Source: a phage
Sequence record: NC_111505.1
DNA: 64,000 nucleotides
Strand: one strand, 5' to 3'
Positions 45,857-53,122 of this stretch are shown here, piece after piece. Below the pieces are notes generated by a model. That model saw only the letters and a list, made by a program, of their open reading frames with translations, was not told where the DNA came from and did not search any database. The position numbers and the translations under genes are program-made. Numbering within the stretch: the first letter of the stretch is position 1; each line of letters starts with the position of its first letter.

Positions 45857-45902
45857 TTTAAAGGTTCCTTTTGTGTGTATATGTTTAAAGTATAACTAAA
45901 GG

Positions 45903-45948
45903 TGGTCTCCACGGAGTGATTCGAACACTCGACCTCCTGATCCCAAAG
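45903..45948 (-). tRNA. 3' half of split tRNA-like gene: anticodon loop (UGG, Pro-like), variable loop, T-arm, acceptor 3' strand and CCA
   Basis: Minus-strand CTTTGGGATCAGGAGGTCGAGTGTTCGAATCACTCCGTGGAGACCA: T-arm GAGTG/TTCGAAT/CACTC, acceptor CGTGGAG, encoded CCA. Confidence 0.5.
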
Positions 45949-46290
45949 TTATGGTAGTTCTAAAAGTCCTGCATGTACGGCAGCATGACAATTTCTACAA
46001 AGTAATACACAGTTTTTAATTTCATTATCAATTCTTTGCAGACTCCAACCTCTCATTTGAGCAAATTTAGAGTCTTTAATTTTAGGATCTAAATGGTGAA
46101 TATCTAAAGAAACAATCCATTTATCGAACCCACAATTGATACATTTACCGCCTAACTTGTCTACAGCATACTGTCGTTTCTGCCTCCCAAGATTCATGGT
46201 GTACTCATTGTGACATTTCCCACATATAGTCTTTTTATGACCATAAAATTTACATGGATCTTCTTCCCCACAACGACTGCATTTGTGCAT
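45949..46290 (-). CDS. HNH endonuclease with Zn-ribbon (113 aa) lying between two halves of a tRNA-like gene
   Basis: CxxC...CxxC plus HNH motif (DIHHLDPKIKDS...NCVLLCRNCH); ATG at 46288-46290, stop at 45949-45951. Confidence 0.75.
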   Translation of the reverse strand: MHKCSRCGEEDPCKFYGHKKTICGKCHNEYTMNLGRQKRQYAVDKLGGKCINCGFDKWIVSLDIHHLDPKIKDSKFAQMRGWSLQRIDNEIKNCVLLCRNCHAAVHAGLLELP

Positions 46291-46300
46291 CTTTGATTAT

Positions 46301-46325
46301 CTCTACCAAGCTGAGCTACGCGGAG
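46301..46325 (-). tRNA. 5' half of split tRNA-like gene: acceptor 5' strand and D-arm
   Basis: Minus-strand CTCCGCGTAGCTCAGCTTGGTAGAG; acceptor CTCCGCG pairs with CGTGGAG of the 3' half (six Watson-Crick pairs plus one G-U). Confidence 0.5.
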
Positions 46326-46336
46326 TATTTATAATT

Positions 46337-46411
46337 TGGTGGCCCTGGGTGGAATTGAACCACCGTCTGGCGATTATGAGTCGCTTGCTTGAACCTTCCA
46401 GCTACAGGGCC
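46337..46411 (-). tRNA. tRNA-Met (anticodon CAU; initiator, elongator or Ile-lysidine not distinguished)
   Basis: Hand-folded cloverleaf: acceptor GGCCCTG/CAGGGCC, anticodon loop CTCATAA, T-arm GGTGG/TTCAATT/CCACC, CCA encoded. Confidence 0.7.
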
Positions 46412-46412
46412 A

Positions 46413-46488
46413 TGGTGCTGATGGCAGGACTTGAACCTGCAACCTATTGATTACAAATCAATTGCACTGCCAATTGTGCTACATCAGC
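46413..46488 (-). tRNA. tRNA-Thr (anticodon UGU)
   Basis: Acceptor GCTGATG/CATCAGC, D-stem GCAC/GTGC, anticodon stem ATTGA/TCAAT with loop TTTGTAA, T-arm GCAGG/TTCAAGT/CCTGC, CCA encoded. Confidence 0.75.
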
Positions 46489-46492
46489 AAAA

Positions 46493-46591
46493 GGTGCTAG
46501 GTGATGGAATCGAACCATCTATGTATTCAACGACTACCTCGTCTATTTTCAGGATTAAAAATCCTCGCCCTTGCCAAAGGGCTTACCTAGC
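46493..46591 (-). tRNA. atypical tRNA-like element (~97 nt), anticodon ambiguous (possibly UUU)
   Basis: Good acceptor (GCTAGGT/ACCTAGC), D-arm (GCCC/GGGC) and T-arm (GATGG/TTCGATT/CCATC), but anticodon arm is a near-palindrome (AGGATTTTTAATCCT) and about 30 nt lie between anticodon arm and T-arm. Confidence 0.4.
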
Positions 46592-46689
46592 GCAATATGT
46601 TGACCATGTGGCTAGTCGGCGATGACGACTGTAACATTTGATAATCCGGTTCTGCTTCCGGCTTTCGCTTAATTACAAGGTCAACAATG

Positions 46690-46780
46690 TGGCGGAGAGT
46701 AATGGAATCGAACCATCATCGAGTCATCCTCAACGGGACGGTTTTCAAGACCGCTTGAGCACCATTGCTCCCTACCCTCC
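46690..46780 (-). tRNA. tRNA-Ser (anticodon UGA), long variable arm
   Basis: Acceptor GGAGGGT/ACTCTCC, anticodon stem GCGGT/ACCGT with loop CTTGAAA, T-loop TTCGATT, CCA encoded; 91 nt. Confidence 0.65.
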
Positions 46781-46894
46781 TTTATAAATTACACTGATAA
46801 TGACACTGATTTTCGAGCAGTTAGTGACTAGTATAAACGACGATAAACATCAATGCCATTATCTGTATGATTTATGCATTTAAAAATATAAATT

Positions 46895-46981
46895 TGGTGG
46901 GGAGTGGTGGAGTCGAACCACCCGAGTCGCAATGACAATAGATTTACAGTCTACACCGCTACCTCTACGGGATAACTCCCC
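46895..46981 (-). tRNA. tRNA-Tyr (anticodon GUA), long variable arm
   Basis: Acceptor GGGGAGT/ACTCCCC, anticodon loop CTGTAAA, T-arm GGTGG/TTCGACT/CCACC, CCA encoded; 87 nt. Confidence 0.7.
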
Positions 46982-46985
46982 AATT

Positions 46986-47060
46986 TGGCACCCCGTACTG
47001 GACTCGAACCAGTGTCAACGGCTTAGAAGGCCGCTGCTTTATCCACTAAGCTAACAGGGC
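46986..47060 (-). tRNA. tRNA-Arg (anticodon UCU)
   Basis: Acceptor GCCCTGT/ACGGGGT (two G-U), D-stem GCTT/AAGC, anticodon stem GCGGC/GCCGT with loop CTTCTAA, T-arm ACTGG/TTCGAGT/CCAGT, CCA encoded. Confidence 0.7.
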
Positions 47061-47118: not shown

Positions 47119-47147
47119 ATATTACACTGTTAAGCAAAGTTTGTCAA
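47119..47147 (-). promoter_or_regulatory. sigma70-like promoter upstream of tRNA cluster
   Basis: Minus strand TTGACA (47142-47147), 17-nt spacer, TAATAT (47119-47124). Confidence 0.5.
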
Positions 47148-49996: not shown

Positions 49997-50551
49997 TTAC
50001 TCACCGCTGTCAATAGCAAAACTCATTGCAATACGGTATGCCTCTTCTAATGGTAAGAGTCTCCCCCACACATCCCAACCGACATCAAACTGCCTGCCAA
50101 ACAACTGCTGTGTGGTTCCGTGAGCATGACCGAACAGTTGGACTGATCCGTGAGGCTTTCTGTTCCACTTTGCAAACTGGTAATGGCTCATACAGATCAA
50201 ATTCTTGTTGTGGCGAAGCTCGTAATAATCTACAACCTCATGACCGAACTCTTTCATAATTCTGACAGTCGTTCTTGTGTCATGGTTACCACGAACAAGA
50301 ATAATATGTCCGTTCAACATATTTAGAACATCTGGAAGCAATTTGTTGATATTCTTATCATTAGTGCACGCAATATCCCCCAAGTGAAACACAGTGTCTG
50401 CAGGTGACACAACAGAGTTCCACTTGGTGATGATTCCCGCATTCATACTGTCAAGATTGTGATCATACTGAGATCTGTGTTTTTGACATGAGTCGAACTC
50501 CATTACCCGCTGGTGGAGAAAGTGTGTGTCGCTTGTTACAAAGTATTTCAT
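49997..50551 (-). CDS. calcineurin-like metallophosphoesterase (candidate RNA 3'-end phosphatase)
   Basis: Motifs DTHF, HLGDIA, GNHD, FGHAHG; real start MKYFVTSD at 50549-50551, 7 nt after the kinase stop. Confidence 0.65.
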   Translation of the reverse strand: MKYFVTSDTHFLHQRVMEFDSCQKHRSQYDHNLDSMNAGIITKWNSVVSPADTVFHLGDIACTNDKNINKLLPDVLNMLNGHIILVRGNHDTRTTVRIMKEFGHEVVDYYELRHNKNLICMSHYQFAKWNRKPHGSVQLFGHAHGTTQQLFGRQFDVGWDVWGRLLPLEEAYRIAMSFAIDSGE

Positions 50552-50558
50552 ACATTCC

Positions 50559-50969
50559 TCATTTAAGTTTAATGCAGTTTTTAAGCTGGCGTTCCATACG
50601 ATCCACAACCCTGTCTGGAACATCATGAATGCTTTTATTACCATGGCGGTTTTCAACCACGATCACGGTATAACTATATCCATGACTGATCGCCATGTCA
50701 ATATATTCTTGCACATATTTTTCTTTTGTAAACGTATTACTTACCACGATACGGTCGTAGCCCATACGCATCATATCTTCTACGTTATCTTTGCACCATT
50801 TTGCTGCAAGTGTTACTTTACTTGCATCCCAATTGTAATTGCCGTCATCGTCGTACCAGAACATATCGTTCTCAAAATGTGGATACAGACCTTCTAAAGA
50901 TAGCGCATTTGCCAGTGTTGATTTGCCAGACCCTGGTAGACCACGCACGATATATAGCATTTTAGACAT
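50559..50969 (-). CDS. polynucleotide 5'-kinase-like P-loop protein (137 aa)
   Basis: Walker A GLPGSGKST; layout resembles T4 Pnk kinase domain (IVVSNTFT..., ...HDVPDRVV...); start ATG 50967-50969 with GGAGAG upstream. Confidence 0.6.
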   Translation of the reverse strand: MSKMLYIVRGLPGSGKSTLANALSLEGLYPHFENDMFWYDDDGNYNWDASKVTLAAKWCKDNVEDMMRMGYDRIVVSNTFTKEKYVQEYIDMAISHGYSYTVIVVENRHGNKSIHDVPDRVVDRMERQLKNCIKLK

Positions 50970-51029
50970 AGTAACTCTCCGTTTTAATTTTAATGATAGT
51001 ATACCTAACTGTTTTGTTAATTTCAAGTG

Positions 51030-51058
51030 TTGACACCAGGTTATTTGTGTGGCAGAAT
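51030..51058 (+). promoter_or_regulatory. candidate promoter for the ligase-like gene
   Basis: TTGACA 51030-51035, 17-nt spacer, weak -10 CAGAAT. Confidence 0.3.
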
Positions 51059-51087
51059 AAAGGGACAAAATGACAAATGAGGAATGT

Positions 51088-52005
51088 ATGATGAAGTATT
51101 TTAATGCAGACGACCTGGTTGACAAAGGTCTTGTAACCAGCAGATATTACCCAGATCTTGGATTAAAGATCTACAAATATGCCAGAAAAGTATTCTACAA
51201 CAATTTATGGCATTTGTCTCCGCGTTTACTAGAGTGCCGAGGCATTGTTGTCGGTAATGAAGGAAATGTTGTGGCATGGCCCTTCACAAAAGTGTTTAAT
51301 TTGGGAGAAAACTCCACCAACCTGCCTGACAATAAACTTGTGACGGCGGTAGAGAAAAAGAACGGATTCCTTGGTGTGGTATCATCTCATAAAGGTGAAC
51401 TATTGTTTTCAACAACCGGGTCTCTTGATTCTCCATATTGTAACCTTGCAAAGGAAACCATCCAGGAGCAATGTGGTAATTTAGATCTCATCAAAAAGGT
51501 TATGGGCCATGAAAACATGACATTCATGTTTGAAATTTGTCACCCTTCAGATCCGCATATTGTTCAGGAAGACCATGGCGCATATTTGATAGGTTGCAGA
51601 TATAACGATTCTGGAATAATGCTACCAGAAGCAGCTTTAGATGGGATTGCCAAATACCTTGGTGCAAAACGTCCTCACACTGTGCGTGAAATTCCGTTCA
51701 GCTATGCAAAAGAATTAGCTGCAGAAACAAGAGGTGAAGGGTATATGATTCGTAAGCCTTACTACCCTTATGATCTGCAGCTGAAGATCAAGTCTCCATA
51801 CTATTTGGCACGGAAGGCCGTAATGAGGGGTAAAGCTTGGAAGATTTGGGATGATGATATCTTTAAACGTATTGACGAAGAGTTTTACGGCATGGTAAAC
51901 TTCATTCGTAACAATTACACAGAAGATGTGTGGAACTGCCTCCTAGAGCAGGAACGCCGTGAGATACTTGACTGCTATTTCCACAACGAGGACTATATGC
52001 AATGA
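51088..52005 (+). CDS. nucleotidyltransferase-type ligase, RNA-ligase-like (start 51070, 51088 or 51091)
   Basis: Ligase motifs I (KKNG), III (FEICHP), IV (EGYMIRK), V (LKIKS); motif IV/V flavour resembles Rnl2-type RNA ligases; divergent from kinase/phosphoesterase pair. Confidence 0.5.
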   Translation: MMKYFNADDLVDKGLVTSRYYPDLGLKIYKYARKVFYNNLWHLSPRLLECRGIVVGNEGNVVAWPFTKVFNLGENSTNLPDNKLVTAVEKKNGFLGVVSSHKGELLFSTTGSLDSPYCNLAKETIQEQCGNLDLIKKVMGHENMTFMFEICHPSDPHIVQEDHGAYLIGCRYNDSGIMLPEAALDGIAKYLGAKRPHTVREIPFSYAKELAAETRGEGYMIRKPYYPYDLQLKIKSPYYLARKAVMRGKAWKIWDDDIFKRIDEEFYGMVNFIRNNYTEDVWNCLLEQERREILDCYFHNEDYMQ

Positions 52006-52352
52006 AGAAGTTGATTGTGTGGCTGGATGACTTGAGAGATCCGTCAAATTATGGGCTCCCAGATGCTCTTTGGCTAAAGAATTCCTCTGAGTTTATGGAT
52101 TTTATTAACGATAAGGGAAAGCTCTACAGGCGCGTTTCTGAGTGGCACATGGACAACGACCTTGGAGAGGTATTTGAAGGGTACGATTGCCTATCTATGC
52201 TGGAGGAAAAATTTGTATTTGGTAAGCCTCCTGTAGTTGACAACGTGAAGATTTTCGTGCATACTTCTAACCCATCAGCTGCTCGTAAATTCATGCTTGC
52301 TGCTGACTCGTTTAAAAAGTTTGGAATAGAGATTAAACAAAACATCTACTGA
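52002..52352 (+). CDS. hypothetical protein with receiver/Rossmann-like residue pattern (116 aa)
   Basis: ORF track; start overlaps ligase stop (ATGA); pattern LIVWLDD ... D ... VHTSNP; no confident family. Confidence 0.3.
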   Translation: MKKLIVWLDDLRDPSNYGLPDALWLKNSSEFMDFINDKGKLYRRVSEWHMDNDLGEVFEGYDCLSMLEEKFVFGKPPVVDNVKIFVHTSNPSAARKFMLAADSFKKFGIEIKQNIY

Positions 52353-52360
52353 GGACACTT

Positions 52361-53122
52361 ATGCGACGACTGATCATTATCTCCGGTGCTGGTTTGAGCG
52401 CTGAATCTGGTATCCCAACTTTCCGATCTGGTGGCACTGCAATGTGGGAGAATTTCAGCATCGATGAGGTGTGTAACATCCACACCTTTGCCAAGAACTA
52501 CTATAAGGTTCATGACTTTTACAATGCACGGCGTGTAGCTCTTGGCAGTGTTGATCCTAACCTTGCACATCTCCGGATCGCTGAGTGGTATTCCCGCTGG
52601 TCTGGTCGTGTGATTAACCTGACCACCAATGTAGATGATTTGCTGGAGCGTGCTGGTGTAAAACATGAAGATATTTTACATGTCCACGGATATTTGCCAG
52701 AAATAGTCTACGAGGATGATGAAGGGAGTAACGTCATTAAAGACATTGGATACTCTGAGGTAGATGCAAGCAAGTATACTTGGGTTAAGCCTAATGTAGT
52801 GTTCTTCGGAGAAGTAGCTCCAAAGTATACAGACATGTATGACCTGTTGACTTCTCTGACGAGCAATGATATGGTTATCCTTGTAGGGTGCTCCAACACA
52901 GTTATCAATTTTAACTGGGAGCTATTCCCTGCCTGTAATAAGGGGACCAAACTGCTGATCGTTAACAAATACGACTCACAGCATTTAGGGGAGAATGGCA
53001 TTTCACGTAGTGACATTTACCAGTATGAGGATCGCGGCATCCCAGTTTGGTTTAACGGGGCTGTTGACGCTTTCTCTGATAAAACATTCATTGACATCGT
53101 AGAAAACTTTATGGAACTGTAA
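52361..53122 (+). CDS. Sir2-family (sirtuin-like) NAD-dependent protein
   Basis: Canonical sirtuin motifs: ISGAGLSAESGIPTFR, TTNVDDLLERAG, HVHG, VVFFGE, ILVGCS; SD GAGGA 5 nt upstream of ATG. Confidence 0.8.
   Translation: MRRLIIISGAGLSAESGIPTFRSGGTAMWENFSIDEVCNIHTFAKNYYKVHDFYNARRVALGSVDPNLAHLRIAEWYSRWSGRVINLTTNVDDLLERAGVKHEDILHVHGYLPEIVYEDDEGSNVIKDIGYSEVDASKYTWVKPNVVFFGEVAPKYTDMYDLLTSLTSNDMVILVGCSNTVINFNWELFPACNKGTKLLIVNKYDSQHLGENGISRSDIYQYEDRGIPVWFNGAVDAFSDKTFIDIVENFMEL

Follow-up and report, generated by a model that had tools for sequence, protein, structure and literature searches.

The phage DNA analysed here is a 64,000-nucleotide (nt) stretch of sequence record NC_111505.1, called the window throughout, and it belongs to an rV5-like Escherichia coli myovirus of the genus Vequintavirus. 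Escherichia phage VB-EcoM-WM matches the region of interest at 99.7% identity, and many rV5-like Vequintavirus phages match it at 96-99%. The region contains an operon of transfer RNA (tRNA) genes, and within this operon lies the tRNA-like gene considered here (46591→46493, minus strand; RNA-sense sequence GCUAGGUAAGCCCUUUGGCAAGGGCGAGGAUUUUUAAUCCUGAAAAUAGACGAGGUAGUCGUUGAAUACAUAGAUGGUUCGAUUCCAUCACCUAGCACC), which we refer to as the element. ARAGORN reports exactly 46493-46591 under the label "tRNA-??? anticodon (atcc)". The Rfam tRNA model (RF00005) matches 46495-46591 above its gathering cut-off of 29 bits (Table 1), in an alignment that needs a 26-nt insertion in the variable region and the deletion of one anticodon-stem position; no other Rfam family gives a plausible match at E ≤ 1. 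The predicted fold has an energy of -34.8 kcal/mol (z = -4.0), and none of 200 shuffled sequences folds as well. A sequence-only reading had proposed an atypical tRNA-like element at these nucleotides, naming no strand, and the proposal holds: the ARAGORN coordinates are the same, the fold stands out from the shuffles, the structure covaries across genera, and neither ARAGORN nor Rfam returns a normal type II tRNA fold with an unambiguous anticodon.

Table 1. Features of the tRNA-like element, its operon and the RNA-repair genes, in window coordinates.
Feature	Position	Strand	Evidence and remarks
Entire tRNA-like gene; 97 nt as far as discriminator A73, followed by encoded CC	46493..46591	-	ARAGORN; Rfam tRNA 37.5 bits; family covariance model 101.4 bits at 46492-46591
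Acceptor stem, 5' strand GCUAGGU (pairs with 46496-46502)	46585..46591	-	7/7 pairs; double changes at 3-70 and 4-69 between genera
D arm, 6-base-pair (bp) stem GCCCUU/AAGGGC, 4-nt loop UGGC (tRNA-Sec/allo-tRNA type)	46567..46582	-	3/6 pairs covary (GCCCUU, GACCUU, GCGGUU); pair probabilities 0.70-1.0
Hairpin 1 ("anticodon" arm), AGGA-UUUUUAA-UCCU	46551..46565	-	Stem covaries; loop differs by genus; can close further to a 5-nt or 3-nt loop
Linker L1, GAAAAUA, single-stranded	46544..46550	-	GAAAA invariant in all members; unpaired probability ≥ 0.83
Hairpin 2 (variable arm), G-ACGA-GGUAG-UCGU-U, hypervariable module	46529..46543	-	Compensatory ACGA/UCGU to ACGG/CCGU; replaced between otherwise identical Mydovirus copies
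Linker L2, GAAUACAUA, single-stranded	46520..46528	-	AAUACAUA invariant in all members; unpaired probability ≥ 0.81
T arm, GAUGG-UUCGAUU-CCAUC	46503..46519	-	Stem covaries; C56 covaries with D-loop G19
Acceptor 3' strand ACCUAGC, discriminator A73 (46495), encoded CC (46493-46494), then UUUU	46493..46502	-	Sequence
tRNA operon: Arg(UCU), Tyr(GUA), Ser(UGA), element, Thr(UGU), Met(CAU)	46337..47060	-	ARAGORN
Sigma-70-type promoter-like site, TTGACA-17-TAATAT, ~60 nt upstream of first tRNA	47119..47147	-	Consensus scan, 10/12 matches; pattern match only
Metallophosphoesterase	49997-50656	-	Pfam
P-loop kinase	50559-51125	-	Pfam
Rnl1-family (T4 Rnl1) RNA ligase	51070-52005	+	Pfam
Cyclic-phosphate-processing receiver domain protein (PF20274)	52002-52352	+	Pfam

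The acceptor stem (7 bp) and T arm (5 bp) are canonical, as the sequence-only reading had it, but the D arm, which it also took to be canonical, is not: besides its long stem and short loop, A8 and U14 replace U8 and A14. Two purines (AA or AG) separate the acceptor stem from the D stem in family members, and a single G separates the D stem from hairpin 1. The latter contains the palindrome pointed out earlier, AGGAUUUUUAAUCCU, and can indeed be read with a 7-nt loop, UUUUUAA, which places UUU at the anticodon; calculated folding energies are -2.6 kcal/mol for the 7-nt loop and -4.6 kcal/mol for the 3-nt loop. Between the anticodon arm and the T arm there are 31 nt, in agreement with the expanded variable region of about 30 nt described before, although this region is not a plain long arm, but a 5-bp hairpin flanked by single strands of 7 and 9 nt. 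The last base of L1 and the first base of L2 usually add one pair (G.U or U-A) to hairpin 2. No Watson-Crick pairing was found between L1 and L2, and both linkers are predicted to be unpaired. The encoded 3' end consists of A73, then CC, then U, and was read correctly from the start.

Twenty-five distinct full-length members of the same family came out of BLAST, pattern searches and a covariance model. They belong to Vequintavirus, Avunavirus, Seunavirus, Mydovirus and Henunavirus or to viral and metagenome contigs. The family spans at least five named genera of the Vequintavirinae, with one copy per genome, and about 190 phage records carry the gene (127 by a Vequintavirus-type query, and 60-66 full-length matches by Seunavirus/Mydovirus-type queries); members of the BASEL collection of coliphages carry it as well. 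With a family covariance model built from 24 sequences, members score 94.6-120 bits and ordinary tRNAs at most 26.7 bits, while the adjacent class II Ser and Tyr tRNAs reach only 24-27 bits. The same model finds no second copy or paralogue in the window or in a full sister genome, and no members outside the Vequintavirinae in one Phapecoctavirus tRNA cluster or the T5 tRNA region. Among cellular genomes, a strict pattern gives no match in 185,579 species genomes, and none of the 120 matches listed for a more general pattern in bacterial and archaeal genomes has the family architecture. Rfam gives the Seunavirus, Mydovirus and Avunavirus copies no match of any kind at E ≤ 0.01.

The gene is noticed by annotation software, yet it is not recognised as a family. 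GenBank labels at its slot vary between tRNA-OTHER, tRNA-Lys (AAA), tRNA-TERM/Stop(tta), tRNA-???(atcc) and a blank, and the rV5 genome paper gives six tRNAs, with the element's slot not among them (PMC3606486). No description of this RNA family was found in the literature searched, including the papers on PARIS, Schlafen, retron and allo-tRNA systems. Two side observations concern the records themselves. About 18 records (MG0656xx) named "Campylobacter phage" (host C. jejuni) are, over this region, ~98% identical to E. coli rV5-like phages, and their host labels look doubtful. In Phapecoctavirus ECO340P2 (L164, 14064-14151, minus strand), 88 nt without annotation lie between the tRNA-Asn and tRNA-Ser genes; their score of 21 bits with the family model is typical of an ordinary tRNA. 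ARAGORN makes no call there, and the stretch may be a missed class II tRNA.

The structure of the family is strongly supported by comparison of 18 distinct sequences from the five named genera. Stem cells are paired in 99.8% of cases, and 10 of 24 pairs are changed on both sides; when the structure is slid by 1-3 columns as a control, only 0-2 doubly changed pairs are obtained. The elbow pair G19:C56 becomes U19:A56 in 7 of the 18 sequences, with no exceptions, such that a UGGC D loop accompanies a UUCGAUU T loop and UGUC accompanies UUAGAUU. Every one of the 24 aligned sequences has a 7/5 acceptor/T branch. Three Vequintavirus-type variants keep every stem paired (position 9 is unpaired, and the T-stem/acceptor changes give G.U/A-U and U-A/U.G). 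While the stems have turned over between genera, 13 nucleotides of the linkers have stayed the same. Hairpin 1 is 15-16 nt long across the family, while hairpin 2 has a stem of 4-7 bp and a loop of 3-12 nt, with subtypes that are unrelated in sequence. Three hallmarks define the family: its D arm resembles that of tRNA-Sec, its extra hairpin is hypervariable but framed by two A-rich single strands that do not vary, and its anticodon-type loop differs, together with the discriminator, between genera.

These comparative data effectively refute a decaying tRNA pseudogene, one of the options raised by the sequence-only reading. Its aberrant shape, the disagreement among annotators and a truly broken tRNA-Pro nearby would fit such an origin, but the element shows neither uncompensated decay nor conservation confined to close relatives. 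Judged by sequence comparison, it is not a pseudogene, because it is conserved as a single copy per genome across the Vequintavirinae (94-120 bits) with compensatory changes in every stem and in the tertiary pair, and because its near-complete pairing, the ten doubly changed pairs and the paired stems of its variants all speak against decay. The two remaining options, a tRNA with an insertion and a tRNA-derived RNA, are both still compatible with the data, and neither is singled out.

Several more specific candidates were rejected. An intron or similar insertion fits poorly: 31 nt is too short for a bacterial group I intron, the extra sequence follows the anticodon stem rather than interrupting the loop, and conservation is highest in its flanks. 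A hammerhead-like core (CUGAnGA...GAAA) has, on inspection, an A at the equivalent of the catalytic G8. For L2 as an antisense seed, the complement CTATGTATT occurs once elsewhere in the window, no more than by chance. Kissing of the hairpin 1 and hairpin 2 loops could be drawn for several Seunavirus copies (UGGA/UCCA) and for 4MG (UGGC/GCCA), but it is not a family feature, since the Mydovirus, Henunavirus and Vequintavirus subtypes lack matching loops.

The comparison with the tRNA clusters of related phages, which the sequence-only reading had suggested, thus defines a family with invariant linkers in which the "anticodon" and the discriminator switch together between genera. The hairpin 1 loop is UUUUUAA in Vequintavirus, UUUAUAA in Avunavirus, and CAUCAAA or UAUCAAA in Henunavirus and contig L158, while Seunavirus and Mydovirus have a 6-nt loop, CNNCCA (CAUCCA, CAGCCA, CCACCA, CCUCCA or CUUCCA). 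Family loops are one or two changes from E. coli loops: CUUUUAA for Lys, CUUCCAA for Gly(UCC), UUGCCAA for Gly(GCC) and CUUCAAA for Sec. The discriminator is A in Vequintavirus, U in Seunavirus, Mydovirus and Henunavirus (where CCA is also encoded), and C or U in Avunavirus. It tracks the loop, with A73 accompanying UUU, and U73 plus an encoded CCA accompanying NCC and UCA. A separate observation concerns a 70-nt tRNA-Asp(GUC)-like gene of the Seunavirus/Mydovirus type (L067, 1035-1104, minus strand; also L013, 221-236, and L029, 957-972). It is otherwise ordinary, but its anticodon arm, GCCAC-UCGUCA-GUGGU, has a 6-nt loop, and ARAGORN labels it "tRNA-??? (gt)". The conservation of this loop in three phage genomes or contigs indicates that shortened anticodon loops recur in this phage group.

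Published identity rules give these combinations a possible meaning. Lysine identity in E. coli consists of the anticodon and A73, bacterial glycine identity consists of U73, G1-C72, C2-G71, C35 and C36, and C2-G71 is an antideterminant for SerRS (PMC9976931). By loop and discriminator, the window copy holds the full E. coli lysine set at the sequence level (U34, U35, U36 and A73), and the Seunavirus and Mydovirus copies match all five glycine elements. The C2-G71 pair that acts against SerRS is present in every member, despite the long arm. The joint change of loop and discriminator therefore appears, from sequence, to be a switch of apparent amino-acid identity between genera.

The element folds into the L-shape of a tRNA, with a 7/5 acceptor/T branch and the conserved elbow pair. 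We tentatively read it, with less than even confidence, as a non-canonical tRNA that is functional and is produced from the tRNA operon of the phage. Our favoured but similarly guarded proposal for its role is that of a chargeable, nuclease-evading stand-in for the host tRNA-Lys(UUU). This proposal is based on the operon context, the lysine identity set, the resemblance of the loop to that of the host combined with a changed distal stem, the lack of a further tRNA-Lys in the Vequintavirus operon, and the phage repair genes. Hairpin 1 and the E. coli tRNA-Lys arm have UUUUAAUC in common; read with 7 nt, the loop of hairpin 1 differs from that of the E. coli arm only at position 32 (C to U), the stem retains A31-U39 and G30-C40, and pair 29-41 is G-C, as in T5 tRNA-Lys and unlike E. 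coli. AriB, of the PARIS system, recognises the anticodon stem-loop of tRNA-Lys, which it cleaves between residues 40 and 41; the tRNA-Lys of T5 escapes this cleavage and rescues infection (PMC11464382). For PrrC170, infection is rescued by a phage tRNA-Lys (PMC11555353), and tRNA-Lys(UUU) is also cut by a bacterial Schlafen (PMC13056530).

Under this proposal, RNase P and 3' trimming would release the RNA, the host CCA-adding enzyme would complete the encoded CC, and LysRS would charge the product. The charged element would then replace host tRNA-Lys(UUU), which is cut by the defence nucleases PrrC and PARIS/AriB and by those of the Schlafen type. These nucleases would act poorly on the foreign body of the element, given the altered distal anticodon stem, the Sec-like D arm and the bulky variable domain; where AriB cuts, the element would have C41, a base also found there in T5 tRNA-Lys, which is resistant. 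The invariant linkers may brace the extra arm or bind a protein. The element would act together with the ligase, kinase and phosphoesterase genes of the phage, which lie ~3-5.7 kb upstream of the operon and which a sister phage annotates as RNA ligase, polynucleotide kinase and phosphoesterase; T4 mends PrrC-cut tRNA-Lys with the same kind of repair kit (PMC10264068).

A number of observations weigh against the stand-in proposal. For the window copy, U33 and A37 are present with the 7-nt loop, but this register needs a stem of only 4 bp plus a G.G apposition, and ARAGORN reads "atcc", whereas a canonical decoding tRNA is defined by a 5-bp anticodon stem, a 7-nt loop, U33, a purine at 37 and an anticodon on which the tools agree. 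By energy calculation, the unmodified RNA favours a 3-nt or 5-nt loop over the 7-nt loop by 1.5-2 kcal/mol. The body is not that of E. coli tRNA-Lys (class I, 4-bp D stem, 5-nt variable loop, ~76 nt), being 97 nt long with a Sec-like D arm and a 31-nt variable region, and the latter might hinder LysRS, a class II enzyme. The PARIS resistance mutation tested in the literature is a 31-39 swap, which the element does not have. Across the family, the most conserved part is the linker pair, not the anticodon; the correlation between loop and discriminator involves only 3-4 independent lineages; and Avunavirus (UAU with C73 or U73) fits no known identity set. Most relatives' loops should decode poorly, having either six nucleotides (CNNCCA) or A33 (in YAUCAAA). 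Seunavirus and Mydovirus phages also carry a canonical tRNA-Gly(UCC), so the function common to the whole family may not be decoding. For every family member, the case for charging and decoding is inferred at the level of sequence. Finally, homologues of the Rnl1 ligase occur across the Vequintavirinae and in many unrelated phages that lack the element; because it is so much more widespread, we regard the ligase as context and reject it as a specific or dedicated protein partner.

A non-decoding tRNA mimic is nearly as likely as the stand-in, if somewhat doubtful in its own right. Such an RNA would be processed like a tRNA, and possibly charged, but would not read codons. It might serve as a decoy for, or an inhibitor of, proteins that bind tRNAs, among them the defence enzymes that target them, or it might carry an aminoacyl group for a reaction off the ribosome. 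The bait would then be the host-like anticodon loop of hairpin 1, and the linkers and extra hairpin would form a functional or protein-binding module. A constant scaffold and two invariant linkers around a variable loop are consistent with a mimic, as are loops that should decode poorly and yet closely resemble host loops (CUUCCA or CAUCCA against Gly CUUCCAA; CAUCAAA against Sec CUUCAAA). The same applies to the redundancy of the Seunavirus/Mydovirus copy for decoding beside canonical tRNA-Gly(UCC), to the preference of the unmodified window RNA for a closed loop, and to the exchange of hairpin 2 between otherwise identical copies, as expected under diversifying pressure. Precedents are a charged tRNA-like RNA outside translation (Bacillus cereus tRNA-Other, cited in PMC5389517) and the T5 RNAs RNAIV and RNA2H. 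On the other hand, the partner protein and nuclease binding are hypothetical, a sacrificial decoy needs high abundance, and U33, A37 and the full lysine set of the window copy would be unnecessary for a pure decoy. The conserved 6-nt loop of the tRNA-Asp-like gene in the same phages also hints that short loops are tolerated in working tRNAs. Carried further, the family might represent an undescribed class of tRNA-shaped RNA, with a fixed scaffold (the Sec-like D arm and the GAAAA/AAUACAUA linkers), an exchangeable host-like loop (Lys, Gly or other, switching with the discriminator) and a hypervariable hairpin, which would be aminoacylated without decoding and serve as anti-defence bait, inhibitor or aminoacyl carrier. 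We consider this broader version rather doubtful.

Two further readings keep the element in translation. An ordinary codon-supply tRNA-Lys(UUU), whose odd body would be historical baggage and which would add AAA/AAG decoding capacity, is unlikely. The tRNA-Lys (AAA) label in several GenBank records and a score above the Rfam tRNA threshold agree with it, as does the fact that other tRNAs of the operon read A-ending codons (AGA, UCA, ACA, CCA). However, baggage would not keep the 13 linker nucleotides identical across genera, and the anticodon varies among relatives. Supplementation is also not obviously needed, because tRNA-Lys(UUU) is abundant in E. coli and AAA is its preferred Lys codon. 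A stop-codon suppressor allowing programmed readthrough of phage genes is very improbable. It is suggested by the annotations in JLBYU08 (tRNA-TERM/tta) and Erwinia phage pEp_SNUABM_01 ("suppressor", UCA), and by the Henunavirus and L158 copies, whose clean 7-nt YAUCAAA loop contains UCA and whose best match is the tRNA-Sec model, at 37.6 bits. This score is, however, below the cut-off of that model (RF01852, 47 bits), the branch is 7/5 rather than 8/5, A33 replaces U33, the discriminator is not G73, and C2-G71 disfavours SerRS. In the window copy, UUA is readable only from a 5-nt loop, and the 7-nt register gives UUU. Recoded phage genes were not seen, although no search was aimed at them.

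The element is tightly packed within its operon. The Thr tRNA begins 4 nt past the encoded CC, and in Seunavirus and Avunavirus phages the CCA of the upstream tRNA lies 2 nt before the element, an arrangement that fits tRNA-type processing. A pure RNA-processing or transcription signal, either as tRNA-shaped punctuation for RNase P or as a partial terminator formed by the D hairpin and a U-run, is highly unlikely. A consensus scan does flag the GC-rich D hairpin (46567-46582, minus strand) and the downstream U-run GAGGAUUUUU as terminator-like, and structured unannotated spacers flank the element. The U-run is confined to the Vequintavirus and Avunavirus subtypes, so the flag is probably incidental, and punctuation would not need the elbow pair, the invariant linkers or an encoded CCA end. 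The spacers are a 98-nt sequence (46592-46689, minus strand) closed by GUUGACC/GGUCAAC (z = -2.2) and a 114-nt sequence (46781-46894, minus strand) that forms a long hairpin (z = -4.1; 0 of 200 shuffles as good). Both could be further small RNAs or processing elements.

Other observations concern the wider neighbourhood. A Pfam scan finds no informative domains in the immediate neighbours of the element. About 170-270 bp downstream, a tRNA-Pro(UGG) that is intact in sister phages is split in the window (45857-46325, minus strand). Its 5' part (CTCCGCGTAGCTCAGCTTGGTAGAG, ~46325-46301) is followed by an insertion of ~360 bp with an HNH endonuclease open reading frame (45949-46290), which replaces 7 nt of the 5' strand of the anticodon stem (CGCCTGA), and then by the 3' part; ARAGORN finds no tRNA-Pro in the window. 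The RNA-repair cluster as a whole spans 49997-53122, with a SIR2-family protein at its end.

Phage tRNAs are now understood as a means of countering immune systems that cleave tRNAs, with PrrC, PARIS, retron PtuAB and Schlafens as examples. The gene described here is a conserved but odd one in a group of large enterobacterial phages; with its lysine-tRNA marks, the window copy may take the place of, or imitate, the lysine tRNA of the host, which is destroyed by bacterial defence enzymes. The known anti-immunity phage tRNAs are near-canonical, with few changes in the anticodon arm, whereas the present family breaks several tRNA rules under strong structural selection. If it is charged and decodes, bacterial translation would accept a wider range of tRNA shapes, which would be useful for orthogonal tRNA engineering; should it fail to decode, phages would turn out to encode tRNA mimics of a new kind. 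Either way, it is a concrete, testable candidate in well-studied coliphages. Standard annotation mostly misses the gene, and one consistent label is wanted across the ~190 phage records.

Among known systems, T5-type phage tRNA-Lys(UUU) resembles the element in its location in a phage tRNA cluster, its UUU loop, A73 and G29-C41 (PMC11464382, PMC11555353). The T5 molecule is, however, a canonical class I tRNA of 76-78 nt with a CUUUUAA loop and a 5-bp stem, while the element has 97 nt, a Sec-like D arm, a 4-bp stem at the 7-nt loop, U32 and a 31-nt variable domain, and its resistance is hypothetical. With class II tRNAs (Ser, Leu, Tyr), genuine examples of which (Ser and Tyr) adjoin it in the operon, the element shares an extra stem-loop between the anticodon and T arms and a similar length (97-107 nt in the family, 85-93 nt in class II). 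Class II tRNAs have a 3-4-bp D stem, an 8-11-nt D loop and linkers of 0-2 nt (PMC7609411), as opposed to 6 bp, 4 nt and 7/9 nt in the element.

Some RNAs outside translation are also comparable. The T5 tRNA region (L160; AY543070, 31808-31979 and 32838-32940) contains two annotated stable RNAs of unknown function, RNA2H (172 nt) and RNAIV (103 nt), which are likewise small structured RNAs beside phage tRNA genes; they are not cloverleaf-shaped, and the family model finds only ordinary tRNAs in that region. They do recall that small RNAs without an explanation are frequent in phage tRNA clusters. T4 species 1 and 2 are reportedly also stable RNAs of unknown function in a phage tRNA region. In the Y-RNA-like tRNA mimics (YrlA), the tRNA-like module is closed where a tRNA has its acceptor end, and the RNA's own ends lie in a Ro-binding stem; the ends of the element, by contrast, form a normal open acceptor stem with a discriminator and CC(A). 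The non-proteinogenic tRNA-Gly of Staphylococcus aureus is said to be charged but not used in translation. This RNA and B. cereus tRNA-Other have no sequence relationship to the element and come from different hosts, but they too have a tRNA shape with an aberrant anticodon region, and may be aminoacylated without ribosomal use.

The closest structural parallels are bacterial tRNA-Sec (selC) and the allo-tRNAs (with selC*) of Mukai et al., of which a 6-bp D stem with a 4-nt loop is a hallmark and whose acceptor/T branches are 8/5, 8/4 or 9/3 (PMC7609411, PMC5389517). The family differs from both in its 7/5 branch, the lack of G73, the C2-G71 pair of all members, its occurrence only in phages among the matches listed, and the invariant single strands of 7 and 9 nt that flank the extra arm, where the others have 0-2 nt. 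In the window copy, A8 has no pairing partner in the base that precedes the acceptor 3' strand; the 13-bp (8/5) branch is absent, and the 8/4 or 9/3 branch of allo-tRNAs is not seen either. The tRNA-Sec model reports no match to the element, and its two matches in the window fall on the neighbouring Ser and Tyr genes. Identity as tRNA-Sec would combine UCA, G73 and at least 47 bits on this model; UUU and A73 stand in the window copy, and in the Henunavirus copy UCA is accompanied by U73. The Henunavirus copy nevertheless resembles tRNA-Sec in its CAUCAAA loop and in its best Rfam match. The family shares with tRNA-Sec the D arm (CGUCUC-CGGU-GAGGCG in E. coli selC; GCCCUU-UGGC-AAGGGC in the element), the lone G that joins the D stem to the anticodon stem, the presence of an extra arm, and the G19:C56 elbow pair. 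Like the allo-tRNAs, the family carries diverse anticodons on one scaffold.

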